Below, one piece after another: positions 10,612-35,716 of a DNA stretch of 38,526 nt. Source of the DNA: Thermoplasmatota archaeon (GTDB lineage: Archaea; Thermoplasmatota; E2; DHVEG-1); NCBI GenBank assembly GCA_029907305.1, contig JARYMC010000001.1:1-38526 (forward strand). The letters are read 5' to 3'. Made by a program: the position numbers and the translations under genes. Below the pieces are notes generated by a model. The model did not search any database and was not told the DNA's origin. It was given only the letters and a program-made list of their open reading frames with translations. Each line of letters starts with the position of its first letter. The stretch's first letter is position 1.

Positions 10612-10615
10612 AAAA

Positions 10616-11657: not shown

Positions 11658-14600
11658 ATGAAGAAAAATAACAGAGCGGTTTCACCTGTGATCTCAGCTG
11701 TTTTAGCTTTGATGATTGTTACTTCCACGATGACCGCTGTTTTCGTCTGGGGTGTACCATATATTGATCAGATTAACACTGTTACATCCATAGAAAACTC
11801 TTTAAACCAGTTCACCTCATTTATTGATTCTATAGGTGAGTTGACTAATTCCTATGTTAATGATAGTAGAATAAACACGTTAGGTGTTAGTAAGGGTAGT
11901 GTTTCTGCTGGTGTTGACGAAGGAGGAAAAGACAGGGTTGTTGTTACGTATTCATATGATGAGGGTTATGATTTCACTGTATCTGGTTTGGATACCTGTT
12001 TTTTAGCTGGGACAAAGGTTTTGATGGCAGATGAGTCTTATAAGAACATTGAAGAGATAAATATTGGTGACATGGTTTTATCATATGATGAACATCTTGG
12101 CAGGGTTGTTTCCTGTAGGGTAGTTAATGTTTTTGCTCATCATCCTAGTGAGATGGGTGATTATTATCTTGTAATAAATGATGGTTTGAGGGTTACTCCT
12201 AATCATAGGTTTTATTCTAATGGTAGATGGGTTTATGCCGGTAATCTAAGAGTCGGGGACCCGTTGTTTGGTAAGGATATGGGTTCTAACTATCAGGTTG
12301 TTTCTATTAAAAAAATATATGAGCGGGAGCAGAGTTTTGATTTAGAAGTTGAAGGTTGTCATACGTATTTTGTATCAGTTGGTGGTGTTGATGTTCTTGT
12401 GCATAATGATGATGTGCAATCCCCTGAAAATAAATTGGTTCTATACCCTGAAAAGGATACACATATTAGGGAATTTCACAACACTAAAACTGGTGAAGAT
12501 CATCGGTACCTAAATTTTGGTGGATCTCCAAAACTTAGTGTAGATCTACTCGCTGATCTATTTGGGATATTTTTGGGGAGAGAACATATTCTCATTAAAT
12601 TTGATCTAACAAGCATCCCGATTGGTTCAACCATAGTATCCGCGAAATTAGGCTTATATTATTACGAGTGGGGATATAAAAATTTGTGGTATGATAATCC
12701 TTCCGGTAAAAAACTTGAATGCCATAGGTTAAAGCGTGATTGGAAGGAAGGAAATGGACCGGATGAAGGGATAAGAGGGAACGCAAATTGGTTTAATTCA
12801 ACAGATGATGAAAAGTGGGATATCCTGGGAGGGGACTACGATAATGCTGTTACAGCCTCTGCAGAAATGCCAAACATAGGTAAGGATCCCCCTTATGATC
12901 CTGCATGGATTTATTTGGATGTAAAAAGCGATGTAATAAAATTTTTAAATGACGCACCAAATCATGGGTGGCTACTAAAATATGAAGATCCCCAATATGG
13001 AGTTATTCGGAGTTTTTTAGCTAATTTTACCTCAAATGAAACCACTGTTCAAGATCCGAATACTGGTGATATCGCGAGACCAAAACTAGAAATCATATAC
13101 CTGAAAACAGAAACACTTGGTGCAACCAATGTCCAGAAAAACCGTGCTACTCTTAAGGGCAAAGTAGTCTCATATGGTAATGGTTGTAAATATGGTTTTT
13201 ATTATAGAAAATATGGTACTGACAACTGGTTTTTTACAGGATGGCCAAACATAAATATGACGACAAATGGAGAATTCAGCAAACCTATACAAGGGCTTTC
13301 ACCTGGGTGTCTGTATGAGTACCGTGCGAGCATAAAATGCACATACCAATCCACTGATTACATAAATAACGGGTCTATCATGTATTTCCTTACACCTGGG
13401 GAGATAACCAATTTTAATGCAACTGCTGTTACACCTAGGGATATAATTCTTAAATGGGATCTAGTTGATAACGCAAAGGGGGCATACATTGAATGGTTTA
13501 CAACCCCACCGCCAAGCCCATGGAATCCAGAGCCTTATAACCAAAGCCGTAACAAGGTAGGCATAGATGGTTATTGCGAGGGTGAAAGTTTTCAACATAC
13601 TGGTCTAACACCAAGGACAACCTATTATTACAAGGCATGGGCATATGCTCGTAATAGTGGTTGGATATCAAATGGTAGTGCAACTGCTCCATTTGGAAAC
13701 ACATGTACTAAAGAGGAGGAAACATTTGATGCACCAATCATTTTTACTTATCCGTCACCAAATGTGAATCGTTCAAGGGATGCGACACTAAGAGGACTTC
13801 TCACACATACTACAACTGGAGAAAACTGTATGGTTTGGTTTGATTATGGTCTAACCCCAGCATGTGGCACTGCATCCAAAGACCGTGATTGGACAAATGG
13901 AACTGGTACGTATGATTTTAATATAACCATTGATGGGTTAAAACCAGGTACAAAATACTATTACCGCGCAGTATACGAAGCCGTATACGGAGGAGGCTAT
14001 AAATGTAGATATAGAGACCCAAATATCTCTAGTTTTACAACTCTTATAAACGACTTGGAGGTTGTTTCACCTCAATATAGTGACAGCTGGATAAAAGGGA
14101 TCACCCATAAAATAGAATGGTACTATGGACCAAAGTTAAAAGGTACTAACGTAACTATTGAGTTATATATAGGAAAAGATCCTTGTTATGGAGCAATAGA
14201 TGGGTATGATTACGTGGAGCTGCCCATAAACTATAGTGGAACCGATAAAAACGGGTCATTTAACTGGGTTATACCAAAGAATCTATCCAGTGGTAAATTC
14301 ATCTATAGGATAAAGATAACTAGTGTTTTTGACCAGAATATATATGATTACAGTGATTATTTTTCAATAAGAGATATACATGAAGGAATAGTGTGGAATA
14401 GAACAATAACACCAACACACGAAGGAGACAACAGATATCGGGTTAACTGTGGGTCATCTAGTTGTGAGGGAGATGAATCTTTTAATATCACAATGATAAA
14501 AGGTATTTTAACTAGAGCCGAGGTATACGGGCTTTATTACGGGGGAGAACTATGTGATTGCTCGTTCAGAGGAACAGTACAAATAGACCTATATAACGAT

Positions 14601-15068
14601 AGTTATTGTTTTGGTAGCATCATCCTCCTGGATTCTGATTCCTTAACCTACGAATCTCCATCTAGTAGCGGAACCTATATTTCAACAATTGAAAACGGCG
14701 GGCTTTTATATTCTGATCCCAACATAAATAAATATCTGAAAAAAACACCACCTATTTATGCTGGTGGAGGTGTTTTTTCAATGCATGCGATACAAATTGT
14801 TGCATCACCTTTTTCAGCAGGGGGAAGCAATGGTTTTAGGATCAGGGTAAAAACCGTTGTTAACGTAAACAGTATAAGAGAAAAGGATTATGTTTATAAT
14901 CTTAGACTACAGTTTTATGGTGACAACTCTGATTTGTGGTTAAAATATTTCAGGATTAACTACCCTGTTTTTGAGAGGCAGGGTGACACATTGTTTTATA
15001 CCTCTTCTTCTACATCTAAACTGTGGTTTGTGTTTTCACATACCGCGATTCAGATCAGTTTTGTATGA
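11658..15068 (+). CDS. Giant pilin-like surface protein: class III signal peptide, Hint domain, DNRLRE-like, FN3-like and Kre9/KNH-like modules, pilin-like C-terminal domain
   Basis: The ATG at 11658 is preceded by GGTGA (11646-11650). The track ORF starts at the GTG at 11631. N-terminus is 'MKKNNRAVSPVISAVLALMIVTSTMTAVFVWG'. Other motifs are 'ILIKFDLTSIPIGSTIVSAKLGLYYY' and FN3-like 'GLTPRTTYYYKAWAY' and 'GLKPGTKYYYRAVYE'. The N- and C-terminal ends resemble ORF 15194. Confidence 0.8.
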   Translation: MKKNNRAVSPVISAVLALMIVTSTMTAVFVWGVPYIDQINTVTSIENSLNQFTSFIDSIGELTNSYVNDSRINTLGVSKGSVSAGVDEGGKDRVVVTYSYDEGYDFTVSGLDTCFLAGTKVLMADESYKNIEEINIGDMVLSYDEHLGRVVSCRVVNVFAHHPSEMGDYYLVINDGLRVTPNHRFYSNGRWVYAGNLRVGDPLFGKDMGSNYQVVSIKKIYEREQSFDLEVEGCHTYFVSVGGVDVLVHNDDVQSPENKLVLYPEKDTHIREFHNTKTGEDHRYLNFGGSPKLSVDLLADLFGIFLGREHILIKFDLTSIPIGSTIVSAKLGLYYYEWGYKNLWYDNPSGKKLECHRLKRDWKEGNGPDEGIRGNANWFNSTDDEKWDILGGDYDNAVTASAEMPNIGKDPPYDPAWIYLDVKSDVIKFLNDAPNHGWLLKYEDPQYGVIRSFLANFTSNETTVQDPNTGDIARPKLEIIYLKTETLGATNVQKNRATLKGKVVSYGNGCKYGFYYRKYGTDNWFFTGWPNINMTTNGEFSKPIQGLSPGCLYEYRASIKCTYQSTDYINNGSIMYFLTPGEITNFNATAVTPRDIILKWDLVDNAKGAYIEWFTTPPPSPWNPEPYNQSRNKVGIDGYCEGESFQHTGLTPRTTYYYKAWAYARNSGWISNGSATAPFGNTCTKEEETFDAPIIFTYPSPNVNRSRDATLRGLLTHTTTGENCMVWFDYGLTPACGTASKDRDWTNGTGTYDFNITIDGLKPGTKYYYRAVYEAVYGGGYKCRYRDPNISSFTTLINDLEVVSPQYSDSWIKGITHKIEWYYGPKLKGTNVTIELYIGKDPCYGAIDGYDYVELPINYSGTDKNGSFNWVIPKNLSSGKFIYRIKITSVFDQNIYDYSDYFSIRDIHEGIVWNRTITPTHEGDNRYRVNCGSSSCEGDESFNITMIKGILTRAEVYGLYYGGELCDCSFRGTVQIDLYNDSYCFGSIILLDSDSLTYESPSSSGTYISTIENGGLLYSDPNINKYLKKTPPIYAGGGVFSMHAIQIVASPFSAGGSNGFRIRVKTVVNVNSIREKDYVYNLRLQFYGDNSDLWLKYFRINYPVFERQGDTLFYTSSSTSKLWFVFSHTAIQISFV
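11997..12407 (+). other. Hint (Hedgehog/intein-like) domain, copy 1, 137 aa
   Basis: Starts at Cys ('CFLAGTKVLMADESY'), has block B 'VTPNHRF', and ends 'GVDVLVHN'. The next residue is Asp (12408-12410). No endonuclease insert. Confidence 0.75.
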
Positions 15069-15193: not shown

Positions 15194-16192
15194 ATGCATA
15201 CTCTTAGTAATTATGCTGTAACTGAGGTTCTAAGTCTTGTCACTGTTGTTATAATTGCATCATCAGCTATCACCGCGGTGCTTTTATGGGCTATACCAGA
15301 GTTGGATGCTAAGAAGCAGTCTGTTCGTATTGATAGTGCTTTGACACAGTTTAAGACCATAAGAGATGTTATAGAGGATGTTACCAGCGGTGGTGCTGGT
15401 GCAAGTAATTTCGTTGATTTTGTAACAGATGCTGGTGATGTTTCCTTGGATTCTAAAGGCGATAGGTTTATTTTTTACTATTCGCTTGTTGAAGGTTTTG
15501 ATTTCAATGTATCTAATCTTGGTGATAGTTACGATAGAAAATTTGGTTTTAAAATAGAAAGCGCTGCTGGACCTGGATCCGCTGTGGATTCTTTTTTAAC
15601 AATATATTATCTATATAGTGGCGAATCGGAAACCGTACCAATTACTAATCAAGTTGAAATCTCTAAGAATTTAGCAGATGCCGTTAAAATAGATGTTACC
15701 TATTCTGGTAAAATTTCTGGTCGTATCTGGCTTTTTGACTCAGGATACTTATCATACGAAGTAGCATCCAGCTCCGGGGTTTTTAGGCTTTTTGCTGAGA
15801 ACGGAGCAACTATCTCAGTATACCCCTCTGGTTATCTATACCATAAACCTGGTTTTTACAACAAAGATAACTCAGTTGTTATGAAAATGATACAGATAAA
15901 ACCAGGTGATATAAGAGGTGGAAGCGGGAAAGGCGTATACAAATTCCTAATCAGATCAAATGCTAGCTACGTAAGAGAGGTTAAAGCAGATATACATGGA
16001 TGTTTTAAAATGCAGATATATGGGGGTAACAGTGAGGCTTGGGTAAGGTTTTACACGATGGAACATGGTTTCAAAAAATTTGGTTCAACCCAAGGAGGTT
16101 CTCTCTCTCAAGATACATTGTATCTGGAGGCGGGTAAAACCTTTTCGCTTGTTCAATCAGTTTGTGATGCTAGGTTGGTGGAAATAAAATGA
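15194..16192 (+). CDS. Pilin-like protein (class III signal peptide), 332 aa; uninterrupted paralog of the ORF 11658 scaffold
   Basis: N-terminus 'NYAVTEVLSLVTVVIIASSAITAVLLWAIPELD'. Both N- and C-terminal regions align by eye with ORF 11658. Confidence 0.7.
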   Translation: MHTLSNYAVTEVLSLVTVVIIASSAITAVLLWAIPELDAKKQSVRIDSALTQFKTIRDVIEDVTSGGAGASNFVDFVTDAGDVSLDSKGDRFIFYYSLVEGFDFNVSNLGDSYDRKFGFKIESAAGPGSAVDSFLTIYYLYSGESETVPITNQVEISKNLADAVKIDVTYSGKISGRIWLFDSGYLSYEVASSSGVFRLFAENGATISVYPSGYLYHKPGFYNKDNSVVMKMIQIKPGDIRGGSGKGVYKFLIRSNASYVREVKADIHGCFKMQIYGGNSEAWVRFYTMEHGFKKFGSTQGGSLSQDTLYLEAGKTFSLVQSVCDARLVEIK

Positions 16193-19100
16193 GGAGTATA
16201 ACCTACGATAGAAAGGGTGTTTCAAATATTCTTGGTTACGTTTTTTCATTTGGCGTAGCATCTATGTTGATGATTAGCGCTGTTCTTATAACCACAGGTA
16301 TACTTGATAACAGAACCGCTGCTGTTGCAGGTATGCAGGCTCAGAGTGTTGCCAACAAGATAGCAGACGCGGTTGTAGAGGCAATCGCGGTACTACAGTC
16401 TCCATCTAACATGGGTTATAAAAAAACCTTGGATATACCTATGGATATAGCTGGGCGTAGCTACTATGTTGATGTCACAGATAAACTGATATACGTAAAC
16501 ACCACAGATGGGCTGGTGAGCAGAAGCTGCCCAACCTACACAGCTGAGGACCTAAAAATCGGTGTTGGTGGTGGTAGAACATATTGTGGTGGCGTAGGCA
16601 AGATCAATGTTTCTGTTGATAAATCTGATACACTCTATAAACTGGATTTCGGATCAGGAAACACAACCAGGCATTCACCTGTTGCATCAGGATATTATTT
16701 TGTGAGTAACACATCTGCAATAAAGCCTGAGTTAAGGGACCCACCTTGGTGGAATACTAGTTATACAAACAGGGTTCCAATATTGATAAACAACACCTCA
16801 CCATATGATCTGGTAAATGTACCAGTTAAGGTAGTTCTCAACACATCAAATTTTGATTACAGCAAGGCAAATGTGGTTTTTGAAGAATCTTCTTCAAATT
16901 TTACATCTAATCTTGTTTTTAATGACCCCTCAGATAATGCTGTGACTAAGATCGAAATCCTTACAAAGGAATGGAACCCTGGTTGGTTTTATACTTACTA
17001 CTATCCTACTGAAAACACTGTTACTGTTAGAATCAAAGAGATTGCTGGAGGATATGATATATCCTACATAAGAGGAGAAACCATTAAGTTAAACGGAAAT
17101 GTAAAAAGAAAATCATGGGATGCATCTACAGGTATTGCTAAATTTGATGGCAAAGAAGCTCTGGAGTCGCTTGAAAACGGGGAACATTTCCTAAAAAAAT
17201 CTAGGTACACTGTTACTGTTTCTGGTTTACTTAAAAACGGGGTTGAATTCTACGGCTTAGGAGATATATCTATAAATGCTGTGTACGTTCGCCCCGGGGA
17301 TAGCATAAAAAATGCTATTCAGAGATCATCCCCAGGGGGCACGGTTTTTGTATACAAAGGAACATATGTTGAAGAGGGTTTAAGTATAAATAAACCGTTG
17401 AATCTTATTGGCGAAAGCAGGGATGAAACTATTTTTAATGTAAATAAAAGTTATAAAACTGCCATCAATATAGATAGCACATCTTATGTAAATATCGACT
17501 CCTTCTGGGTATACCCAAAGCTACAATCTAATGAACCTGGGAGTGGACCTGGGATTGGTATAGATGTCAGTAAGTGTGAACATGTTAATATCACAAACTG
17601 TAGGATAAACAAAACTGCAAAAGGCATAAGAATAGGTGATTTATCATCTGATGTTTCTATATCAAATTGTTTAACATATGACATAACGCCCTCCGACGAC
17701 GTGCGTGGGAATGGAATAGCTGTTGCGAACAGCAAATACGTTCGTATCACAAACTGCACAACATATCATCTTAATACAACCCTTGGCGACGGTTTTGATA
17801 TTCGCTCATCTGAGTACGTCGATGTAATAAGATGCATATCTCATAGCCATTATGGAAAGAGGGCAAATGGGGTAAAGTTAATAGCTAGTAATCATTGTAA
17901 CGTAATAGACAGCAGGTTCTATAATCTCACTGGTAACGCAACAGCTGGTGTAGAGATCTGCGCAGATGTTAATGGAAACCCAAGCAAATATAATGTGGTA
18001 AAAGGCTGTGTTATATATGGGAACAACGCATCTGGTGCTCCAAATGATGTAGGACGCGGGGTTTATATCGCGGATGCGGGCACTGATTATAACATTATTG
18101 AGAATTGTACTATTTACAAAAACAGCATAGGCATACAATTTACAACTATTATTGCTTATGAGTTTGAAAAACTCAGCCTCATATTGGAAGGGCTCCTTGA
18201 TTTTTTTAAGGAGGGACCAAAATCTCATAACAGTATACTAAACTGTAGTATATACGAAAATCTAAACCATGGCATAGCTTTTTTCCATATGCTAGGTAAT
18301 AATATCAGCAACTGCAACATTTATAACAATGGCATAAACCCAAACATGGGTACATCGTTTGATGACCCATGTGGCATTCTTCTCGTAGCTTCTGGAAAAA
18401 ACAACATAACAAATTGTAACATCTATAAAAACGGTCTAAGTGATAAATCGGGTGGCTGTGGTCTTATTTTAATATTTGCTGGATGGAACCATATAGAATA
18501 TTGTAACATATATGGCAACATTAAAAGTAGCAGCCATCTCAAGTCTGGGGATGGTATTAAACTTATGTCATCTTATGGTACTTTTTCTCTGACAGGATGC
18601 GGATTTAACGAAATAAAATATTGTAATGTCTTTGATAACGGCAGAGATGGCCTCGAGTTATACAAAGGCAACACTTTAAACAAAATTTCCAATTGCAATT
18701 TCTATTGCAATGGTGAAAAAGGAGTCTACATTAGTGGTATTAATCCTTCTAATCAGATAGAGTATAGCAATTTCGAAAAAAACGGTGAAAATGCCAATGA
18801 TAGTATATTAGGAGGAATAAATTCTTGGAATGGAAATTTTTGGGATGACTTTGAATCTAATTGTGGACACGATGATGGTTATTATTGTATCCCACCTGGT
18901 ATTTGTGGGGAGGAGAAATGTCTTGGTCATGGAGATGATAACCCGCGATCTACTCGTAACCCAAATCCTGCTTTTTTCCAAGTTGACTACAGTTACTCTG
19001 CTGAGGATTTCTACCACACGCGATCAATAAAAAATGCACTACAAAACATGGATACCATGGAAGTTGGAGGGACTGTAAAGGTTTATGCTGGTACTTATAA

Positions 19101-21633
19101 CGGCATCGTAACAATAAAACAAGCAAATGTTAAGCTAATAGGCGAAGGAAACGTTATTGTCAGTGGTAATGATCCACCACTGAAATCAACAGCTATCACT
19201 GTGAAAAATTATAGTGTCAGCATAGAAGGATTAACAATAAAAGATAGCCTAAGAGGAATATGGTATAAAAATAACCTTTCTTCAGGAGGTTTACCTTTAA
19301 AAATCAAAAATTGCAAAATAGAAAACAATACCCAAGAAGGCATTTATCTAGGGGGAAACAGCAACAACTACTGCATTATAAATAGCTGTAACATATCCAA
19401 CAATAAATATGGCATATATGGTGGTACAAATGGTAACAAAATCATAGACTGCACCATCAAAAATAACAATGATGCTGGTGTTAAAATCAAAAACCGTAAT
19501 TCAAATAACTTCACAAACTGCACTTTATCTAATAACAAAATCGGTTTCATCATAGAATCTGGTTCTGATAACATCATCATCAACTCCAGGATACTTAATC
19601 ATGAAAACGAGGGTATCAAAATCTCAGGCTCCTCTAATAACAATATTTTGAATTGTAATGTAAATGGTAATAATGAAGGTATTAGTATCACAGGTTCTTC
19701 CACTAACAACAAGATTTCAAACTGTACTATAAATTACAACGCTAAGGGCATCTATATTGATTCCTTAGGAAATGCTAGCTATAACGAGATCAGTTACTCT
19801 AATATATCTGGTAGTACAAATGGTGTAGAGATAAAAGATTCTTTTGACAATACTATCACGTACTGTAATATTTATAACAATAGCAACGGCGTCTATATAC
19901 ATGACAACACTCCGCTATCATGTAATTATATTCTTTGCGAGAATATTATCACAAACTGCAGCATATATAATAACAATAATTACGGTGTTTTGACTAATAC
20001 ATCATCATATTACAACAAAATATATCACAACATTTTTAAAAACAAAAAAAACGCTAACGCTAAGGAAAAAAAATATCCGAACATATGGGATAATGGTTAC
20101 CCAAGTGGTGGAAACCTATGGTCTGACTATGATGACGAATCAGATAATGCCTTTGACTACTTCAGCGGAGAAAGCTATCCCCCTGGAGGTCAAGAGGACC
20201 CTGGCAGCGACGGCATAGCAGACAAACCATACAACAAAAACGGTGTGAAAGACAAATATCCATTCTGTAGAAAAAACCCTAGGATACCCTACTACATAGA
20301 TTACTGGAACCCACATGGTGAATCTGTGATCCTAGTAAACATAAGCATAGGAGCACACTCAGCTAAATGCATAAATCTATACTATGGGTATGATGGAGCA
20401 TTAGAAAAAATCCATAATCATACCATGAATGAGATATCACTGTTTTTTGATGACTTCCTCGGAACTAGTATTGATACAAACAAGTGGCTACGGCTACAAG
20501 CTTCAGAACCAATTACGCCGAAATATAAAGTCCAAGACGGGTGTATCAATTTTTCAGATGAAGGAAACATCACAACAAAAGATTTTGCCATACCAGATAT
20601 TGGGGATCCACCAAAAAATACACTGTCTCTAACCACAAACGAGTCAATGTACATCGTTGAAGCAAAAATGAAAATAAACAGAGGGCAGGGTAATATGATT
20701 TTACTGAAAATAGGCACTAATAGATCCTACTATTTAGTTTCAGCTAATGCAACACCATCACATACCCTCTCTCTTCATAAAAATTGTTTACCTCCACATA
20801 AAACATTTTATGAATTAGATAATGCCCCCTCATCAAACCTAAGCCACTGGATAAGAATGAAAGCCTACATACACCTAAGCAAAACCTACTACCCAGACCC
20901 ATATAATCCAAGCAAGTACTTACAAACAAATGCTACATTTATAAAAACCTATGTCTATGATTACAATACATTTGCTGATCTAGCCAGCGTCTCAGCTTTA
21001 GATACATGGAGCTACCCAGGAAGTTGGTCTGAGCCACCATACGAAGCAGCACAAGGCAAACCATATCCATACCCAGGACACAATGGTAAAATTGGTTTAG
21101 GATCCGGAATACTATCCTCAGAAGTTAGCAACGTCTTAATCGACTGGATAAGGGTAATGAAAACCCCGGTTGTTCAACCAACAGTCACAGTTGGAAGCAT
21201 GGAATCCATAAACTACGGATGGGACACATCAGGTGTAAAAACCTGGAACACAAACAACCCAAACCCATTTGAGCTAACAAACCCAGTGCTCTGTGATTTC
21301 AACTATGGTATTAGTAGCCCCACTGGGCCGAGCTTAAGTATAAACTTTGTAATAAAAAATTTACCCGCTGGTAAATATACTATCACAGTTACAAAAGGTA
21401 ACTACACAAACACAACCGACCAAATAACAGTTACAGTTACAGAAACCGGCAGCGAATCCAAAGAAATGAATATCCCAGATACAGACTACGGTAAATTCGA
21501 AACAAAATGGGTTACAATAAACAAAGAAAAAGATAACAGTGATATAAACATTGTTTTTTCCGGTAAAAAATGGCTTGTAAACTCAATTATCATAGACCGA
21601 GGAGCAAAAGGCGTTAAAGTAGGATGGGAATAA
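16189..21633 (+). CDS. Giant (1814 aa) pilin-like surface protein with DUF2341-like, two parallel beta-helix (PbH1/NosD-like) arrays and a LamG-like region
   Basis: ATGA overlap with the previous stop. N-terminus is 'RKGVSNILGYVFSFGVASMLMISAVLITTG'. DUF2341-like segment is 'WWNTSYTNRVPILINNTSPYDLVNVPVKVVLNTSNFDYSKAN'. Beta-helix array starts are 'GDSIKNAIQRSSPGGTVFVYKGTYVEEGLSINKPLNLIGE' and 'SIKNALQNMDTMEVGGTVKVYAGTYNG'. There are dozens of 'I.NC.IYNN..GI' turns. Confidence 0.8.
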   Translation: MRSITYDRKGVSNILGYVFSFGVASMLMISAVLITTGILDNRTAAVAGMQAQSVANKIADAVVEAIAVLQSPSNMGYKKTLDIPMDIAGRSYYVDVTDKLIYVNTTDGLVSRSCPTYTAEDLKIGVGGGRTYCGGVGKINVSVDKSDTLYKLDFGSGNTTRHSPVASGYYFVSNTSAIKPELRDPPWWNTSYTNRVPILINNTSPYDLVNVPVKVVLNTSNFDYSKANVVFEESSSNFTSNLVFNDPSDNAVTKIEILTKEWNPGWFYTYYYPTENTVTVRIKEIAGGYDISYIRGETIKLNGNVKRKSWDASTGIAKFDGKEALESLENGEHFLKKSRYTVTVSGLLKNGVEFYGLGDISINAVYVRPGDSIKNAIQRSSPGGTVFVYKGTYVEEGLSINKPLNLIGESRDETIFNVNKSYKTAINIDSTSYVNIDSFWVYPKLQSNEPGSGPGIGIDVSKCEHVNITNCRINKTAKGIRIGDLSSDVSISNCLTYDITPSDDVRGNGIAVANSKYVRITNCTTYHLNTTLGDGFDIRSSEYVDVIRCISHSHYGKRANGVKLIASNHCNVIDSRFYNLTGNATAGVEICADVNGNPSKYNVVKGCVIYGNNASGAPNDVGRGVYIADAGTDYNIIENCTIYKNSIGIQFTTIIAYEFEKLSLILEGLLDFFKEGPKSHNSILNCSIYENLNHGIAFFHMLGNNISNCNIYNNGINPNMGTSFDDPCGILLVASGKNNITNCNIYKNGLSDKSGGCGLILIFAGWNHIEYCNIYGNIKSSSHLKSGDGIKLMSSYGTFSLTGCGFNEIKYCNVFDNGRDGLELYKGNTLNKISNCNFYCNGEKGVYISGINPSNQIEYSNFEKNGENANDSILGGINSWNGNFWDDFESNCGHDDGYYCIPPGICGEEKCLGHGDDNPRSTRNPNPAFFQVDYSYSAEDFYHTRSIKNALQNMDTMEVGGTVKVYAGTYNGIVTIKQANVKLIGEGNVIVSGNDPPLKSTAITVKNYSVSIEGLTIKDSLRGIWYKNNLSSGGLPLKIKNCKIENNTQEGIYLGGNSNNYCIINSCNISNNKYGIYGGTNGNKIIDCTIKNNNDAGVKIKNRNSNNFTNCTLSNNKIGFIIESGSDNIIINSRILNHENEGIKISGSSNNNILNCNVNGNNEGISITGSSTNNKISNCTINYNAKGIYIDSLGNASYNEISYSNISGSTNGVEIKDSFDNTITYCNIYNNSNGVYIHDNTPLSCNYILCENIITNCSIYNNNNYGVLTNTSSYYNKIYHNIFKNKKNANAKEKKYPNIWDNGYPSGGNLWSDYDDESDNAFDYFSGESYPPGGQEDPGSDGIADKPYNKNGVKDKYPFCRKNPRIPYYIDYWNPHGESVILVNISIGAHSAKCINLYYGYDGALEKIHNHTMNEISLFFDDFLGTSIDTNKWLRLQASEPITPKYKVQDGCINFSDEGNITTKDFAIPDIGDPPKNTLSLTTNESMYIVEAKMKINRGQGNMILLKIGTNRSYYLVSANATPSHTLSLHKNCLPPHKTFYELDNAPSSNLSHWIRMKAYIHLSKTYYPDPYNPSKYLQTNATFIKTYVYDYNTFADLASVSALDTWSYPGSWSEPPYEAAQGKPYPYPGHNGKIGLGSGILSSEVSNVLIDWIRVMKTPVVQPTVTVGSMESINYGWDTSGVKTWNTNNPNPFELTNPVLCDFNYGISSPTGPSLSINFVIKNLPAGKYTITVTKGNYTNTTDQITVTVTETGSESKEMNIPDTDYGKFETKWVTINKEKDNSDINIVFSGKKWLVNSIIIDRGAKGVKVGWE
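17281..20056 (+). other. Right-handed parallel beta-helix repeat region (two NosD/pectate-lyase-like arrays)
   Basis: Periodic ~22-25 aa units such as 'NITNCRINKTAKGIRI', 'NISNCNIYNNGIN', 'NITNCNIYKNGLS', 'IEYCNIYGN', 'IINSCNISNNKYGIY', 'ILNCNVNGNNEGISI'. Confidence 0.75.
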
Positions 21634-21639
21634 AAAAAA

Positions 21640-22230
21640 ATGGATGAAAAAGCCCAGATGATGGTAATAGAATCAATAGTTTTCACAATCACCATACTCG
21701 TCGCCCTAATCTTCTTCTACCAACTATCACCAACCACAACAGTCAGTAACATATACACAAACGACCTAAAAATCAAAGGCGACGACGCCCTTAGAACACT
21801 ATACAACGACCAAGTTACAGTAGATTTACCAAAAAATTTCCCAAAAAACAAACTCATATTCTACCTGATAAAAGACAGCTACGAAAGCATGGTTCTACAC
21901 CTACAAAGCAAACTCCCATCAAACACCATATTCAACATATACATAAGCAACGGAACAAACAAGACATTTTGGTGCTCATCCGCCATAAATAACGCAACAC
22001 CTTTACCAGTTACAGAACCAGTCACAATATCACACTACATAATATCAATACATCCACAGTTTTTCAACCAATCAAAATTTCCAAGTATAATCAGCAATGA
22101 TGGTTGTGAAATAGCAAAAGCATTCAACGTATATAAAATGGATGAGTATGGAAAAATTGACATAACAAAAATAAGAGAAGACTACAAAGACTCCACATAT
22201 GATGTGATACTAGAAATGTTCTACACATAA
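21640..22230 (+). CDS. Small pilin-like protein (class III signal peptide)
   Basis: N-terminus 'MDEKAQMMVIESIVFTITILVALIFFYQL'. 196 aa, 6 nt after the preceding stop. Confidence 0.55.
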   Translation: MDEKAQMMVIESIVFTITILVALIFFYQLSPTTTVSNIYTNDLKIKGDDALRTLYNDQVTVDLPKNFPKNKLIFYLIKDSYESMVLHLQSKLPSNTIFNIYISNGTNKTFWCSSAINNATPLPVTEPVTISHYIISIHPQFFNQSKFPSIISNDGCEIAKAFNVYKMDEYGKIDITKIREDYKDSTYDVILEMFYT

Positions 22231-22265
22231 AGAAAAAAACAAAAAAAAAACATAATGAGGATGTT

Positions 22266-22778
22266 ATGAAAAACAAAAAACATAACAAAAAAAACAGAAA
22301 ACTATGCGATCAAAAAAACGGGCAGATGATAATAATAATGGGGGTAGTACTAGCACTCATAATCTTCGTAATAGCCTCACTATCAGCCGACATAATAAAC
22401 CTCAACGTGATAATATCAAATGAAAGAGCCACATCAATAGTATCCGAGTTCAACTACATAAAAGAAGCTTTTGGAACATCCCTAAACTACAATCTAATAA
22501 ACAATGTTACCAGACAAACCGAAGAAAAAGAAAGCTTTTTGATATTCCAAGGAGACATTCATGGTATCACAGAAGCATTCAATCAAACCAGAGACACGTT
22601 CTACACCATAGAGCTAAACTACAGCAGAGTCTTCGATGCAAATCTAAACAAATACTGGTATTCACATAAAAGCGATGAAAACCACATATACCATGTTAGC
22701 GTAACCCTATCACTCTACGACGGAAAAACCTACATAGCTGAAAACGTTGTGTACTCCATACTATGCGAACCATCATAG
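22266..22778 (+). CDS. Small pilin-like protein (class III signal peptide)
   Basis: Basic leader followed by 'KNGQMIIIMGVVLALIIFVIASL'. 'gagg' lies upstream of the ATG. Confidence 0.55.
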   Translation: MKNKKHNKKNRKLCDQKNGQMIIIMGVVLALIIFVIASLSADIINLNVIISNERATSIVSEFNYIKEAFGTSLNYNLINNVTRQTEEKESFLIFQGDIHGITEAFNQTRDTFYTIELNYSRVFDANLNKYWYSHKSDENHIYHVSVTLSLYDGKTYIAENVVYSILCEPS

Positions 22779-22888: not shown

Positions 22889-25800
22889 ATGAAAAGATAC
22901 AGAAAACATCTTATCAACGATGAAAAAGGTGTTTCTCAGGTTTTAGAATCATTGATAGCAATTGGTATATCTGTCTTGCTTCTGCTCATATTTTTTATAA
23001 CCGCGAACAACATATTTGTCGCCCATGATAAACCTAGTATTGACATGGAAGCAAAATGTATAGCTATCATGGAAACTCTACTCAGCTCACCAGGTCAAGG
23101 CAATGAATACGAATCAAACTGGGAGAACAACCCTGAAAAACTTAGCAGCCTTGGTTTAGCTACATCCCCAACAATAGCATATGGTAGCTTTCATATGAAC
23201 GACAAGGGTCAGATAACAGAGTTGTACAAAAAACCTTTTTATGATAGTAGCATAGGCATAGCTAAAACATGTTTTTTAGCTGGGACAAAAATAGTGATGG
23301 CAGATGAGTCCTACAAAAACATTGAGGATATTATTGTTGGAGACATGGTTTTATCATATGATTTAGAAACAGGTGAAATCACAGATGGAAAAGTTACCCA
23401 TGTCTTGCATCACAAGCCAGGGGAGATGGGTGATTATTATCTTGTAATAAATGGTTTCCTCAAAGTGACACCTAACCATCAAATATACTCCAATGGTAGA
23501 TGGGTTTATGCTAGTGAACTAAAAACCGGTGATCCATTGTTTTACCCATCCAGGGACTACAAAGTTGAATCTATAGAAAAAGTCTATGAAAAAATGCCTA
23601 CCTATGATTTTGAGGTTGATGTTAGTCACTGTTATTTTGTAGCTATGGATACAACTGATGTTTTGGTTCATAATCCACCACTATACAACGTCCCACCGAT
23701 CGCTAAGTTCACATGGTTTGACATCGACGGCCTTAACAGTGAGACAACCATATTTTTTGATGCATCTGAGTCTTATGATCCAGATGGAAGAATAGTAGAA
23801 TATAAATGGGATTTCGGAGACGATGAATCTACAACTAGTGATAAGCCAACAGCCTCTCACACCTTTTATGATAGCAGCATGTATATGGTTAGCCTAACAG
23901 TCACCGATAACGAAAGCGCAAATAATACCTATACTTGTGCTGTTCAAGCAAACACCCTTAGCCTCCCAGACATTGAACAAGCACCATGGGTACTAACCGG
24001 GAAAAACATATATTCCTATAACAACGACCAAACACTCTCACCATGTGACGAAAACTACTATGTTGAATACAAAAACCTAGGCAACAACAATTATTCATTT
24101 GAGATAAAAGAAAAAAACAGTCTATATACAATCATAGATTACGATAAAATCACTAATCTCTCGAAAATAGGATATTGGGGTGCGAAATTAATTTTAGGGT
24201 TAAACGAAATCAGTAACGTATTGTATAGCTTTAACATAACCATTATTAGCTACAGTGGTGGAACAACCTATTACTATGGACCAACATGGGAAAACGCTAA
24301 CGCTATGGTTTCAAACAGTAGAGACGTTTTAATATACCATAAACCCGAGGTGAACAAAAGCGACATAACCGATATCACCCCACCATATTATGAGAACGGA
24401 AAGATCATCCTACGTTTCTTCATAGGTGGACCACCACCAAACAGACCACCAAACACACCTAGTAACCCAAGCCCAGTTAACGGAACAACTAAGGTTCTAA
24501 TAACCGCTGATCTCAGCTGGGGTTGTAGTGATCCTGATGATGACCTATTGACTTATGATGTTTACTTTGGTAACACACCTAACCCACCGAGGGTATCTCG
24601 AGGTCAACCCAGTACCATTTATGATCCAGGATTATTGAATGAAAACGAATGGTACTATTGGATGATAGTAGCCAGGGATCAATATGGTGCATCAACAGCT
24701 GGTCCAGTTTGGAGTTTCAAAACTACGTATGTCAGTGGTATACATCCACCACCATACACACCAAGTAATCCTAACCCAGCAAAGGGATCAACAGGTGTAT
24801 ATATAGATGACGATTTGTCCTGGGATGGTGGAGACCCAGAGTCTGGTGATGAAGTGAAATATGATATATATTTCGGTACAAATCCTTCGCCACCACATAT
24901 TGGTACCGCACGCTGGCCAGGGAGCCAAAGACGAATAACCTACCCTCTTGGAACAATGGAATACAACACTACCTATTATTGGAAGATTGTAGCTACAGAT
25001 AACTATGACAATACAGAAGAAGGCCCGATTTGGAGGTTCACAACAAGAAAAAATGATCCATTTATGCCAAATAACCCCAGTCCAGCAGACGATTCTAATG
25101 TAAATCCCCTTAAAACGACACAACTGAGTTGGTATGGAGGAGACCCAGACGGCCCAGATGACACAGTAACTTATGATATATACCTTTGGAACAGCATAAA
25201 TCCACCACCACCTGAACCTATTGGTTTTATCAAAATCTCAGGAGGCTGGTATGACCCTATAACCTATGACCTTCCTGAACCATTGGGGTATAACAAAACC
25301 TATTACTGGAAGATTATAGCTACAGATACCCATAGTAATTCTGCAGAAAGTCCGATTTGGAATTTTACCACTTATGATCCATGTATGCCCAGAAACCCGT
25401 TTCCCGTCAACGAATCAATCAATATAGATGTTGAAGTGCAACTGGAGTGGGACGGCGGAGACCCAGACGGCCCAGATGACACAGTAACTTATGATATATA
25501 CCTTTGGAACAGCATAAATCCACCACCACCTGAACCTATTGGTTTTATCAAAATCTCAGGAGGCTGGTATGACCCTATAACCTATGACCTTCCTGAACCA
25601 TTGGGGTATAACAAAACCTATTACTGGAAGATTATAGCTACAGATACCCATAGTAATTCTGCAGAAAGTCCGATTTGGAATTTTACCACTTATGATCCAT
25701 GTATGCCCAGAAACCCGTTTCCCGTCAACGAATCAATCAATATAGATGTTAAAGTGCAACTGGAGTGGGATGGCGGAGACCCAGATGGCCCAGAGGATAC

Positions 25801-26041
25801 TGTAACTTATGATATATACCTTTGGAACAGCATAAATCCACCACCATCTAAACCTATTGGTTCCATACTCGAAGTCCCAGGAGACGAGATACGGCAAGTA
25901 TATAGGCCCGGATCACTGATGCAAGGAACCATCTATTATTGGTATATCAAAGCTACAGATAGTCATGGTTTACAAACAGTTGGGCCGATATGGAAGTTTA
26001 CCACCACTCCCTCTGACTCTGGAGGGAAAGGTATAGGGTAG
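22889..26041 (+). CDS. Giant pilin-like adhesin: class III signal peptide, Hint domain, PKD domain, five FN3-like modules
   Basis: The ATG at 22889 is preceded by 'ggag'. The track ORF starts at the GTG at 22874. N-terminus is 'EKGVSQVLESLIAIGISVLLLLIFFI'. PKD segment is 'FDASESYDPDGRIVEYKWDFGDD'. FN3-like modules follow the pattern 'P.NP.P..G.....LSW.GGDPD...V.YDIY......YYWKI.ATD....'. Confidence 0.8.
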   Translation: MKRYRKHLINDEKGVSQVLESLIAIGISVLLLLIFFITANNIFVAHDKPSIDMEAKCIAIMETLLSSPGQGNEYESNWENNPEKLSSLGLATSPTIAYGSFHMNDKGQITELYKKPFYDSSIGIAKTCFLAGTKIVMADESYKNIEDIIVGDMVLSYDLETGEITDGKVTHVLHHKPGEMGDYYLVINGFLKVTPNHQIYSNGRWVYASELKTGDPLFYPSRDYKVESIEKVYEKMPTYDFEVDVSHCYFVAMDTTDVLVHNPPLYNVPPIAKFTWFDIDGLNSETTIFFDASESYDPDGRIVEYKWDFGDDESTTSDKPTASHTFYDSSMYMVSLTVTDNESANNTYTCAVQANTLSLPDIEQAPWVLTGKNIYSYNNDQTLSPCDENYYVEYKNLGNNNYSFEIKEKNSLYTIIDYDKITNLSKIGYWGAKLILGLNEISNVLYSFNITIISYSGGTTYYYGPTWENANAMVSNSRDVLIYHKPEVNKSDITDITPPYYENGKIILRFFIGGPPPNRPPNTPSNPSPVNGTTKVLITADLSWGCSDPDDDLLTYDVYFGNTPNPPRVSRGQPSTIYDPGLLNENEWYYWMIVARDQYGASTAGPVWSFKTTYVSGIHPPPYTPSNPNPAKGSTGVYIDDDLSWDGGDPESGDEVKYDIYFGTNPSPPHIGTARWPGSQRRITYPLGTMEYNTTYYWKIVATDNYDNTEEGPIWRFTTRKNDPFMPNNPSPADDSNVNPLKTTQLSWYGGDPDGPDDTVTYDIYLWNSINPPPPEPIGFIKISGGWYDPITYDLPEPLGYNKTYYWKIIATDTHSNSAESPIWNFTTYDPCMPRNPFPVNESINIDVEVQLEWDGGDPDGPDDTVTYDIYLWNSINPPPPEPIGFIKISGGWYDPITYDLPEPLGYNKTYYWKIIATDTHSNSAESPIWNFTTYDPCMPRNPFPVNESINIDVKVQLEWDGGDPDGPEDTVTYDIYLWNSINPPPSKPIGSILEVPGDEIRQVYRPGSLMQGTIYYWYIKATDSHGLQTVGPIWKFTTTPSDSGGKGIG
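23270..23674 (+). other. Hint (Hedgehog/intein-like) domain, copy 2, 135 aa
   Basis: 'CFLAGTKIVMADESY...VTPNHQI...TTDVLVHN', followed by Pro-Pro (23675-). Shares identical nucleotide runs of up to 31 nt with copy 1. Confidence 0.75.
23693..23953 (+). other. PKD domain
   Basis: 'PPIAKFTWFDIDGLNSETTIFFDASESYDPDGRIVEYKWDFGDDESTTSDKPTASHTFYDSSMYMVSLTVTDNESANNT'. Confidence 0.75.
24458..26006 (+). repeat. Five tandem FN3-like protein modules (~88-106 aa each)
   Basis: Module starts are PSNPSPVNGTT, PSNPNPAKGST, PNNPSPADDSN, PRNPFPVNESI and PRNPFPVNESI. Each ends with 'GP[IV]W.F.T'. Confidence 0.8.
25141..25866 (+). repeat. 318-bp tandem direct repeat, 2 full copies plus ~90 bp of a third
   Basis: 25141-25458 and 25459-25776 differ at only 2 positions (g/a in 'gttgaagtg' vs 'gttaaagtg', c/t in 'gggacgg' vs 'gggatgg'). 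The third copy diverges after ~25866. The period is 106 codons, so the repeat is in frame. Confidence 0.9.
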
Positions 26042-26524: not shown

Positions 26525-26760
26525 TGTTCAAAAACCAGTACCCATATCAGATACAAACCCCTCTCGCAGTTCTGTTCAAAAATCGAGACCTGTTTTTCTC
26601 CTTGTATTTAAAAGCTTGTTCAAAATCCGTGACCCGGTTTTTGTTCAAAACTTGGTACCTATACCCCCAGTTTTTTTTTGTTCAAAACTTGGTACCTATG
26701 CGCCTAGTTTTTTTTGTTCAAAACCCATAATCTACTCTCGCCCAAAATCCATGACCACAT
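26525..26760 (+). repeat. Irregularly spaced direct-repeat array, ~7 copies of GTTCAAAA-N3-4-G(T/A)(G/A)(A/C)CC
   Basis: Copies start at 26526 (gttcaaaaaccagtaccc), 26574 (gttcaaaaatcgagacc), 26618 (gttcaaaatccgtgaccc), 26643 and 26680 (gttcaaaacttggtaccta), 26716 (gttcaaaacccataatc), plus a degenerate 26743 (caaaatccatgacca). Spacing is 25-48 bp, and several units end in T-runs. Confidence 0.6.
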
Positions 26761-33434: not shown

Positions 33435-34421
33435 TCATAGTTCAATCAACTGATATGAGGATGATCCTAAACCGATCTCCTCACCATACCTTATTTGTTT
33501 AAACGGGTCCACCTCAGTTTCCTTCTGAAAAACATCTTTTTTAACATCATTTATTAGATCAAGCGATGCCTTATCTATAGCAACAGGATCACTAGAAACA
33601 AGGAAACCGATATCAGGCACAACTATAGGTCCTGGGAAAGGATCACAGTCACAGCTACCAGCCATACGCCTAAGCTCATTTATGTAAATCACATTCTTAT
33701 CAGCAACACAAGCATATGCTGCTAGAACAAGAAGATACTGCAAATCAATATCAACATGTTTAATAGCCTTGTTTTTACAGACATCAACACAGACACCACA
33801 ACCAAAACAAGCCCTGTTACTGAAACTCCATTTATCCCTAGATACCTTTATAGCATCAAAAGGACACATCTCAGCGCACACACCACAAAAAGTACAAGCA
33901 TCCTTATTATAAACAGGTCTGCTACCATGATGCATCCTCTTTTTCGTCTCCCTAGTTACACCACCCATACCAAAGTTTTTTATCGCACCACCAAGACCAG
34001 TCTGAATATGACCCTTCACATGAGAAACAGCAACAATATGTGTAGACTCAAACAGCTGTGTAGCAACATCAAAAACCCGGTTTTCAACAGTAACAGGAAC
34101 ACCGGTGTCACCAATAACAACATCGCAACCAATCTTATTCTTAGAAAAACCATGCATCCTAGCAAGCTTCTCATAACCAGTTTTTGTGCTACGCAAACCA
34201 GGGTAAGCAACAGTTGTATCAAACAAAAAAGGCTCAGCACCAAAACCTTTTATTTCATCAACAACCATTTTAACAAAATCAGCTGGTGGATAATTCTGGT
34301 TTTTCACCTCACCCATATGAAGCTTAACAGGAGTTTTTTTACCAGCAAAACCATCCATGTTAAAACTAGATAAAGCCTCATGCAGTTTATTTAAATCCTT
34401 GAAAAAAACAACCTTACTCAT
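33435..34421 (-). CDS. DUF362-family protein with an inserted 2x[4Fe-4S] ferredoxin domain
   Basis: 'CTFCGVCAEMCPFDAI' and 'CFGCGVCVDVCKNKAI'. The ATG at 34421 forms an ATGA overlap with the upstream gene's stop. The track ORF extends to 34439. Confidence 0.75.
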   Translation of the reverse strand: MSKVVFFKDLNKLHEALSSFNMDGFAGKKTPVKLHMGEVKNQNYPPADFVKMVVDEIKGFGAEPFLFDTTVAYPGLRSTKTGYEKLARMHGFSKNKIGCDVVIGDTGVPVTVENRVFDVATQLFESTHIVAVSHVKGHIQTGLGGAIKNFGMGGVTRETKKRMHHGSRPVYNKDACTFCGVCAEMCPFDAIKVSRDKWSFSNRACFGCGVCVDVCKNKAIKHVDIDLQYLLVLAAYACVADKNVIYINELRRMAGSCDCDPFPGPIVVPDIGFLVSSDPVAIDKASLDLINDVKKDVFQKETEVDPFKQIRYGEEIGLGSSSYQLIEL

Positions 34422-35716
34422 CCAACGATTTTCTCCCATTTCTTTAGTTTAAGAACGCTACCGAGTGACCCGCCACCTTTTATCTCCTCACGGATGCGGT
34501 TCTCCTGCTCCTTAACATCCAAAGCCCTGTTAGCTATTTCCTGTGCAATCTCCTGTGGCACAACAACAACACCAGAGTCGTCACCAATTATCCAGTCACC
34601 GGTTCTAACAATCTGGCCACCACATTTTATCTCAGCACCTATCTCACCGAAACCCTTTGGTTCACCAGCATTAGAAGAAACATGCCTAGAGAAAACAGGG
34701 AAATCCATCTTAACAATATCATCAAGGTCTCTTATCGCACCATCAACCACAACACCACTAAGACCCTTGATTTTAGCACTCCAAGTAGCGAGCTCGCCCC
34801 ACACAGCAGTCCTACCACCATTAACATCAACAACTAAGACATCCCCCTTCTCAGCTTTATCGATGCCTTGTATTGGTTTAGCCCAATCACCATCAATCGT
34901 ACATACAGTGAGCGCCTTTCCAACCATATGAAAACCTAGTTTAACAGGTCTTATACCATGCATAGCACCATGTTTATGCATAGCATCAGAGATGTTTGGT
35001 GTTGAAACCTTCATAAAAGCCTCTCTAAGCTCTGTCTTATCATATTTTTTATGAAGCTCAGTAGGAACAGGTTTTTTCTCAGAAACAGCTTTTTTTATCT
35101 GTTTAGCAGCCTTGGTTACATCCTTAGCCTTGGTTATAGCACCACCAACTATTATTATGCTAGCACCTGCTTTAACAACATCAGCAACAGTCTCACTGTT
35201 CAACCCACCAGCAACAGCAACAGGTAGACTAGTTGATTTAACAACAGAACGAAGCACATCAAACGGTTTTTTACCCATCATCTGCTCATCTATACCAACA
35301 TGGATACAAAGATAATCAACACCAAATTTCTCCATCTGTTTAGCACGCCTAAGCTTATCTCTGACACCAATAAGGTCAACCATGATTTTTGTACCATATT
35401 TACGAGCAGACTTCAAAGCATCAATTATAGTGGCATCATCAGAGACACCAAGTATGCAAACAACATCAGCTCCTGCTTTTGCAGCCATCTCAGTCTCAAG
35501 AGCACCAGTATCCATGGTTTTCATATCAGCAACAACAATGTTCTTAGGGAAACTCTGTTTAAGCCTCCTTATAACATCCATGCCCTCGCTTTTTATCAGA
35601 GGTGTACCAGCCTCAAGCCAACAGTTTGGGTCACCTTTTACCGCATCCCGAGCTATAACTAGGGCTCTATGAGCATTCAGAAGATCAAGCGCCACTTGAA
35701 TAGTTGCCTCCCGCAT
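34418..35716 (-). CDS. Fusion protein: 3-hexulose-6-phosphate synthase (OMPdecase-like) N-domain plus RraA/DlpA-like C-domain
   Basis: N-domain: 'IQVALDLL...WLEAGTPLIKSEGMDVIRRLKQSFP...VADMKTMDTGALE...HVGIDEQ...VAVAGGL'. C-domain: 'ISDAMHKHGAMHGIRPV...GDVLVVDVNGGRTAVWGELATWSAKIKGLSGVVVDGAIRD'. Confidence 0.8.
   Translation of the reverse strand: MREATIQVALDLLNAHRALVIARDAVKGDPNCWLEAGTPLIKSEGMDVIRRLKQSFPKNIVVADMKTMDTGALETEMAAKAGADVVCILGVSDDATIIDALKSARKYGTKIMVDLIGVRDKLRRAKQMEKFGVDYLCIHVGIDEQMMGKKPFDVLRSVVKSTSLPVAVAGGLNSETVADVVKAGASIIIVGGAITKAKDVTKAAKQIKKAVSEKKPVPTELHKKYDKTELREAFMKVSTPNISDAMHKHGAMHGIRPVKLGFHMVGKALTVCTIDGDWAKPIQGIDKAEKGDVLVVDVNGGRTAVWGELATWSAKIKGLSGVVVDGAIRDLDDIVKMDFPVFSRHVSSNAGEPKGFGEIGAEIKCGGQIVRTGDWIIGDDSGVVVVPQEIAQEIANRALDVKEQENRIREEIKGGGSLGSVLKLKKWEKIVG

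Follow-up and report, generated by a model that had tools for sequence, protein, structure and literature searches.

Hint and bacterial-intein-like (BIL) domains are known from bacterial secreted proteins and from polymorphic toxins. Here we describe two Hint modules encoded in a 38,526-nt stretch of DNA from a Thermoplasmatota archaeon (contig JARYMC010000001.1 of assembly GCA_029907305.1; this whole stretch is referred to as the window), copy 1 (W1) in the pilin-like gene G1 and copy 2 (W2), the main subject of this report, in the pilin-like gene G2. Among the closest described systems, A-type BIL domains yield mainly N- and C-cleaved products, for want of a nucleophile at the position following the domain (+1) (PMC7664689, PMC7765530), and the Tetrahymena domain BIL2 joins its N-flank to a lysine by an isopeptide bond (PMC8616854). 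The survey of archaeal pilus loci by Makarova et al. (2016) describes no intein or Hint domain in pilins (PMC4858521), and in the literature searched, including two archaeal filament surveys, we found no report of a Hint or BIL domain inside type IV pilin-like proteins, either archaeal or bacterial. The Hint domain family is known; new are the pilin-like host, the multiplicity per locus and the position at a junction. We consider it reasonably probable that the two copies are old paralogous BIL/PT-HINT (pretoxin HINT) autoprocessing domains in pilins of a pilus locus, that they cleave themselves at the junction between pilin module and passenger, and that the identical nucleotide runs they share stem from patchy gene conversion.

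Two Hint modules and the closest described systems

A reading made from the letters of the window and its open reading frames (ORFs), in the following the sequence-only reading, had proposed a second, paralogous and non-canonical Hint module in a pilin-like gene, followed by Pro-Pro. Both the translation and the PT-HINT score bear this out: in the ORF at 22889–26041, amino acids 128–262 read CFLAGTKIVMADESYKNIEDI...DVLVHN and Pro-Pro comes next. The two modules are:

23270–23674, plus strand: Hint copy 2, 135 aa, with Cys1, TPNH and a terminal His-Asn, followed by Pro-Pro; PT-HINT match
11997–12407, plus strand: Hint copy 1, 137 aa, followed by Asp-Asp; 58.2 bits against PF07591; clusters with the Hints of G1-type orthologues

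Copy 2 scores 54.7 bits against the Pfam PT-HINT model (PF07591), with a cut-off of 27.7. Weaker Pfam matches were obtained to Intein_splicing, Hint and Vint, the intein, Hog and Vint models staying below or near their own thresholds. Both modules are short and carry no homing endonuclease. A profile built from 17 related Hints matches the A-type BIL structure 2lwy from C. thermocellum (E=1.5e-14), with which the window module has the C-terminal VLVHN in common, and the PT-HINT-bearing chain 8w20 (E=5e-20). An AlphaFold2 (AF2) model of G2 residues 1–520 (pLDDT 73.8) has the HINT fold, and Foldseek against the PDB ranks BIL domains first, the best matches being 6y75 and 2lwy (TM 0.76–0.82, target-normalised). 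Over residues 128–262 the block-mean pLDDT is mostly 76–91, with 69 at residues 171–180.

The catalytic positions C1, T67, H70, H134 and N135 are invariant in our alignment A2, and all 67 related copies (tblastn coordinates) are open and span C to HN with no stop or frameshift. TxxH is present in 99 of 105 distinct archaeal relatives, and 71 of them have Thr at –1. At +1, only nine of the 105 have Ser or Thr and none has Cys, so that 96 lack a nucleophile there; in the window this residue is Pro for copy 2 and Asp for copy 1. Regarding selection, dN/dS in five close ortholog pairs was 0.06–0.23 for the Hint versus 0.32–0.41 for the region downstream, which makes the Hint the best-conserved part of a fast-evolving host protein; the low values therefore speak for a module that is maintained and not decaying. 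The module is an A-type BIL/PT-HINT domain.

With the A-type BIL of C. thermocellum (2lwy) the window modules share the HINT fold, a length of about 135 aa, the missing endonuclease, Cys1, TxxH, VLVHN and the lack of a +1 nucleophile, and in both cases the domains sit in variable regions of secreted non-housekeeping proteins. They differ in the archaeal host, the class III-signal pilin-like proteins, the location at a passenger junction and the presence of two to three paralogues per locus; activity here is predicted. Pretoxin HINT (PF07591; Streptomyces proteins, 8w20) is the best Pfam match and likewise lies ahead of a variable region with predicted autoproteolytic release, but in the window PKD/FN3 domains and a conserved pilin-like C-terminal half follow instead of a toxin and an immunity gene. 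A polymorphic toxin system was rejected, as no toxin domain stands after the Hint, no immunity gene is present and Rpr2 comes next after G2. BIL2 of Tetrahymena BUBL (6y75/6tmm) is the top structural match and also lies between independent domains; the flanks in BUBL are ubiquitin-like, unlike those here. Canonical mini-inteins agree in the fold, in blocks A, B, F and G and in having Hint-less alleles that resemble spliced products, but possess Cys, Ser or Thr at +1 and occupy conserved housekeeping sites, whereas the window domains are found in fast-evolving surface proteins. The +1 residues of the window and of the relatives disagree with a canonical class 1 intein. A Hedgehog-type Hog domain does not fit either: the Hint is not C-terminal, since 788 aa follow it in G2 and 885 aa in G1, and the Hog model scores 28.4 and 29.6 against a cut-off of 29.7.

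Host genes and proposed cleavage at the pilin-passenger junction

The host genes are composed as follows:

22889–26041, plus strand: G2, the 1050-aa pilin-like gene with Hint copy 2 (ORF translation; syntenic orthologues in the loci L001, L003 and L162)
22889–23269, plus strand: N-terminal module of G2 (aa 1–127) with class III-type signal, hydrophobic helix and 'part A' (sequence, orthologues, AF2)
23687–23938, plus strand: PKD domain straight after the Hint (Pfam PKD_4, E=1.3e-16, aa 267–350; Foldseek PKD matches)
23945–24439, plus strand: 'part B' of G2 (aa 353–517), a conserved body which directly follows part A in a Hint-less orthologue (colinearity, family search)
24440–26038, plus strand: C-terminal FN3-like repeats of G2 (translation, tandem repeat finder, repeat families D1–D3)
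11658–15068, plus strand: G1, the 1136-aa DUF7289-like pilin-like gene with Hint copy 1 (its N-part matches DUF7289 positions 1–79)
12408–14474, plus strand: passenger of G1 between Hint and C-part, with DNRLRE, FN3/PhoD_N-like and Kre9/KNH-like Ig domains (Pfam, NCBIfam)
14475–15065, plus strand: C-part of G1, completing the pilin-like protein (colinear with the neighbouring Hint-less paralogue)
15194–16192, plus strand: Hint-less DUF7289-like paralogue of G1 (Pfam; colinearity with G1)

A class III signal consists of a short charged N-terminus, a [KR][GA] cleavage motif and a hydrophobic helix. Read by eye against this known motif, the N-terminus of G2 is ...DEKG/VSQVLESLIAIGISVLLLLIFF and that of G1 is ...NNRA/VSPVISAVLALMIVTS, and the orthologues repeat these class III-type motifs. 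The AF2 model of G2 places a helix at residues 12–46 with strands after it, and copy 2 begins about 88 aa past the hydrophobic helix (aa ~15–40), close to the distance of about 90 aa given in the sequence-only reading. Matches of G1 to the pilin-family model DUF7289 reach 19–23.6 bits, below the cut-off of 27, and for G2 Pfam and NCBIfam yielded no family match to the gene as a pilin. Both genes are pilin-like despite their dissimilar host sequence: after removal of Hints and passengers no significant similarity was found between them (best BLASTP E=0.034), in agreement with the earlier claim that the flanks of the two genes are unrelated.

The position of the Hint is defined by comparison with Hint-less relatives. 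G2 without Hint and PKD domain is end-to-end colinear with the Hint-less syntenic orthologue P0197 (E=7e-54), whose upstream neighbours are 54–55% identical and equal in length to the window ORFs 21640–22230 and 22266–22778. A second Hint-less relative, P0180, has kept the PKD domain, and the same contig holds Hint-bearing G1- and G2-like genes. The Hint is missing jointly with the PKD domain in P0197 and jointly with about 25 adjacent residues in P0180. Similarly, once its Hint and its passenger of about 690 aa are removed, G1 runs colinear with the Hint-less paralogue next to it (E=3e-26), and the DUF7289 model is split around the Hint, with positions 1–79 before it and, in the orthologue P0029, positions 104–206 after it as the C-part. 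Judged by this colinearity, each window Hint sits at the N-side junction between a pilin module and a passenger cassette that interrupts a pilin-like protein. The equivalent topological position that had been claimed for the two copies holds in the window, but in some relatives the Hint lies at the C-side passenger junction. Examples with the Hint after the passenger and before the pilin-like C-part are L037 10001–10414 (residue 1700 of 2049), L056, L102 and L028; because of such C-side Hints, the domain can mark either edge of the insert.

An exhaustive search with part B gave 52 cluster representatives of its family among 1.84 billion, including Hint-less relatives, and most full-length members carry a Hint, as judged by the start position of part B. 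No record of the G2 protein turned up in an exact look-up, and a homology search with G2 lacking Hint and PKD returned no match, among hits that apparently do not exceed some 1.75 query lengths. At the 3' end of G2 (25121–25862) we noted 2.3 tandem copies of a 318-nt FN3-like unit, 98% identical, a pattern that points to duplication or homogenisation within the gene in the very recent past. In L162 (JAUWIE010000035.1) the pilin-like gene set is tandemly duplicated, the first G2-like gene being Hint-less and the second carrying a Hint.

For autoprocessing at the junction we propose the following course. The precursor would be exported, whereupon the Hint would fold. Cys1 would undergo an N-to-S acyl shift assisted by the TPNH block, the thioester would be resolved mainly through hydrolysis, and the terminal Asn would cyclise with the help of the penultimate His, giving the C-side cut. 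The chain would be opened at the pilin-passenger junction, the fragments being held non-covalently or the distal part released; a passenger tethered at both ends would become tethered at one end, or its distal part would be freed. Since a +1 nucleophile is absent, the main products would be cleaved fragments and not spliced protein.

Several points weigh against this proposal. Cleavage itself is predicted from family membership, A-type BILs can splice at low yield, and the Pro that follows copy 2 may make Asn cyclisation slower. The Hint-less orthologues have a continuous chain and work as such, therefore a spliced product would also be functional. The AF2 models of G2 1–520 and of the Hint-less P0180 are of moderate quality (pLDDT ~74, pTM ~0.5), Foldseek on the P0180 model recovered PKD domains only, and it is their colinearity that suggests parts A and B to form one fold.

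These points lead to splicing as an alternative, which we regard as unlikely: the Hints would splice by BIL aminolysis, the freed amine of the C-flank attacking the thioester once the N-S shift and the Asn cyclisation have taken place. A Hint would thereby excise itself, with the pilin-passenger chain left continuous, and would represent a tolerated, vertically inherited mini-intein-like passenger and not a host function. P0197 and P0180 resemble spliced products exactly, and Hint-bearing and Hint-less G2-like genes occur on one contig, so the Hint is dispensable for the family. An obligate splicing element would likewise retain its catalytic residues. Moreover, an A-type BIL that has Ala at +1 reportedly splices, and trans-splicing is reported to proceed in the absence of nucleophilic side chains (work by Dassa in 2004 and Aranko in 2013). 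Against splicing stands that BILs give mainly cleaved products (PMC7664689) and that the Pro at +1 in copy 2 is a poor amine for aminolysis. The arrangement is also unlike that of inteins, which sit in conserved housekeeping sites, as a locus holds two to three copies, tandem double Hints occur and the site is always a passenger junction, and the Hint is the best-conserved element within a fast-evolving protein.

A further possibility, improbable in our view and based on analogy to Tetrahymena BIL2, is that the Hint thioester drives an ATP-independent extracellular ligation of the pilin-module C-terminus to a lysine or an N-terminal amine. Acceptors could be another pilus subunit, the passenger of the other Hint pilin or an envelope protein. 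If this were true, the pilus tip would become cross-linked by covalent bonds, as an archaeal equivalent of the pili built by sortases, and the bacterial type IV pilins with a Hint (P0126, P0134; see below) would point to a general partnership of pilin and Hint.

The remaining genes of the locus are:

7359–11530, plus strand: pilus assembly genes, with a FlaI/PilB-type ATPase (7359–9761) and two TadC-like platform proteins (9748–10611 and 10616–11530); Pfam T2SSE and T2SSF
16189–22778, plus strand: a 1814-aa protein with DUF7266, beta-helix and DUF2341, and the small conserved ORFs 21640–22230 and 22266–22778; Pfam

The order of genes is ATPase, two TadC-like genes, G1, its Hint-less paralogue, the 1814-aa protein, two small ORFs, G2 and housekeeping genes, namely Rpr2 (RNase P; directly next to G2), S19e, eIF-6 and others. 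The gene order of the 16189–22778 region recurs in L001, L003, L161 and L162, and the syntenic orthologues of G2 adjoin Rpr2/S19e on the upstream side in L001, L003 and L162. The locus is a Thermoplasmatota type IV pilus gene cluster and resembles the described archaeal type IV pilus loci in its FlaI/PilB-like ATPase, TadC-like proteins, several class III-signal proteins and a large DUF2341 protein (PMC4858521). The ATPase scores 425 bits against the NCBIfam FlaI-like model, under the equivalog cut-off; it is 800 aa long and has an N-terminal extension of about 300 aa without Pfam match ahead of the FlaI-like core. No prepilin peptidase was identified among the Pfam-scanned ORFs of the window, several ORFs (e.g. 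33435–35716, minus strand) being unscanned. Elsewhere in the window, the intergenic region from Rpr2 to S19e contains a 37-nt direct tandem repeat (26638–26711; 92% identical), two short ABC-transporter ORFs at 3494–4567, the permease of which covers only BPD_transp_1 positions 57–184, may be truncated genes, and the region 77–2912 comprises, right at the edge of the window, a serpin C-terminal fragment and, not far from the pilus locus, a gingipain-like gene (peptidase C25).

Relation of the two copies

Identity between the two copies is 61% at the protein level and 67% at the nucleotide level. A tree of 67 Hints shows two large clades that follow the type of host gene, W1 grouping with the G1-type and W2 with the G2-type Hints, and the same-contig Hint pairs of four other genomes are separated by type in the same way. 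As the tree follows the host gene, the duplication is old and there was no wholesale homogenisation. For pairs of type 1 and type 2 Hints the mean protein identity is 55% and the 95th percentile 61%, which puts the window pair at the ordinary upper end. Homogenisation of the whole domain and a recent duplication are ruled out by these two results.

The sequence-only reading had listed five nucleotide strings shared by the two copies. Each indeed occurs exactly twice in the window, in register at a constant offset of 11273 nt; the second string is in fact 16 nt long. A repeat search recovered the Hint pair independently (families D4, D6). The identical patches are located at:

23270–23511, plus strand: copy 2, patches 23270–23289, 23295–23310, 23342–23362, 23423–23453 and 23492–23511
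11997–12238, plus strand: copy 1, patches 11997–12016, 12022–12037, 12069–12089, 12150–12180 and 12219–12238

These five runs are the only identical runs of at least 15 nt between W1 and W2 (31, 21, 20, 20 and 16 nt), and all of them fall within the first 242 nt. At the 82 identical residues the same codon is used 53 times, while 37 ± 4 are expected from the codon usage of the window. Under a codon-usage null, the probability of a run as long as 31 nt is P~0.001, and none of 20,000 simulations produced as many as five runs that reach 15 nt. Such runs are rare in the 478 cross-genome pairs of type 1 with type 2 (maximum two, mean 0.23), and in the four other same-genome pairs the longest runs are 8–11 nt, none reaching 15 nt. 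The clustering persists when overall synonymous identity is held constant: with synonymous states shuffled among the identical residues, the run count has P=0.008 and the summed run length P=0.0002. In a Sawyer-type permutation of variable sites, the sum of squared fragments was significant at P<5e-5 and the longest fragment at P~0.001–0.003, with controls that were not or only marginally significant. On every one of these tests the W1–W2 pair is an outlier. The pairwise alignment thus places the identical runs above what amino-acid conservation leads one to expect, as gene conversion would.

For a comparison site by site, the nearest orthologues were used, L038 for W1 and L004 for W2. Each copy matches its own orthologue at 81 sites, whereas both copies have the G2-type state at 22 and the G1-type state at 23. 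Eight sites, including a Gly-to-Glu change at codon 13, are shared by W1 and W2 against both orthologues, versus 2 and 2 in the cross controls (small numbers); six of the eight fall inside the patches. Amino-acid columns diagnostic of the type number three, too few for mapping conversion tracts. The pattern fits a patchy repair of one or a few heteroduplexes, which would have exchanged sequence in both directions. Of the earlier idea that the module behaves as a mobile or homogenised cassette, an exchange limited to five patches of 16–31 nt survives, whereas the two old clades by host gene contradict it for the domain as a whole.

It is improbable, in our estimate, that the identical runs reflect nothing but conserved catalytic blocks together with a shared AT-rich codon preference. 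This explanation draws on the location of the runs, four of the five lying on or near blocks A and B, where cross-genome runs of 15–23 nt also occur, and on GAGATGGGTGATTATTAT, which is common to W1, L004 and L012 and to W2, L045 and L020. For the gene conversion proposed here the same facts are unfavourable: all but one of the patches fall on conserved blocks that occasionally show 15–23-nt runs in unrelated pairs, so part of each identical run is due to conservation and codon bias; the first 18 nt of the '31-nt' string recur across genomes, and the sister sequences L004 and L038 are short contigs without genome assignment. Conservation and codon preference do not account for the rest. No other pair among the 478 has more than two such runs, the four same-genome pairs stay at 8–11 nt, and five runs were never simulated from codon usage, to which the Sawyer-type P<5e-5 is to be added. 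The patch at Hint nt 73–93 lies outside the usual hot spots and bears Leu28, where all eleven other G2-type Hints of A2 have Lys and the G1-type sister L038 and the orthologue P0029 have Leu. The eight sites common to W1 and W2 against both orthologous lineages point in the same direction.

Outside the window, the type 1 Hint L026 4027–4437 has a 71-nt identical run (Hint nt 1–71) with the type 2 Hints L021 1837–2241 and L023 661–1065. These contigs are of the same sample series, and the run is probably another conversion event, if the contigs share one genome.

Maintenance, distribution and biological meaning

The missing +1 nucleophile could also indicate that the Hint has no catalytic activity and serves as a structural spacer, or that it is the remnant of a decaying intein, which we consider very improbable given invariant catalytic residues, a dN/dS down to 0.06 and stops or frameshifts in none of 67 copies. 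The sequence-only reading had argued for function over a decaying intein, and the 67 open copies with Cys1 and His-Asn, together with the dN/dS range, agree with it. Hardly credible is an assembly artefact, in which the mosaic identity would be the chimeric consensus of two similar repeats: the window is probably metagenome-assembled and the exact G2 protein was not found in the records, but the patches of 16–31 nt interleave with the 81 own-orthologue sites, both ORFs are intact and switching by an assembler would produce long blocks, not five short patches.

Relatives were found encoded in 357 metagenomic stretches in one scan and in 308 genomic stretches in another. The nearest ones all come from metagenome-assembled genomes of uncultured Thermoplasmatota/Thermoplasmatales, the best species representative being about 60% identical in the Hint. 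The combination of a class III signal with a Hint, which the sequence-only reading suggested to look for in other archaeal genomes, is common in relatives: two or three Hint pilins per locus occur on dozens of contigs, and in nearly all examples from Thermoplasmatota the N-terminus is of class III type and the Hint begins 111–168 residues into the protein. The syntenic loci L001 and L003 carry Hints in the orthologues of both G1 and G2. Unlike the window with its two, the related loci L035/L005, L032/L006 and L043/L015 have three Hint-bearing pilin-like genes.

Some proteins contain two or three tandem Hints with short linkers or small domains in between (P0007; L044 19148–19999; L092 18124–19068), further examples being L093 10262–11107, L085, L095 and L129. 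Cut twice, such proteins would set free the segment in between. We also noted bacterial type IV pilin-like proteins with a PT-HINT at or near the C-terminus (P0126, P0134; L111, L114 and L129 from Omnitrophota); the N_methyl score of both P0126 and P0134 exceeds the threshold set by Pfam.

As regards the biology of these archaea, the micro-conversion would mean that sequence still passes between the paralogous Hints of a locus. If the domains are active, they would let these archaea cut their own minor pilins or adhesins extracellularly, without ATP or a protease, at the places where large passenger arrays insert, which would explain how very large adhesive domains are mounted on archaeal pili or leave them. 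Activity would also extend BIL biology to Archaea and make the family a large natural set of compact self-cleaving domains that are presumably extracellular.

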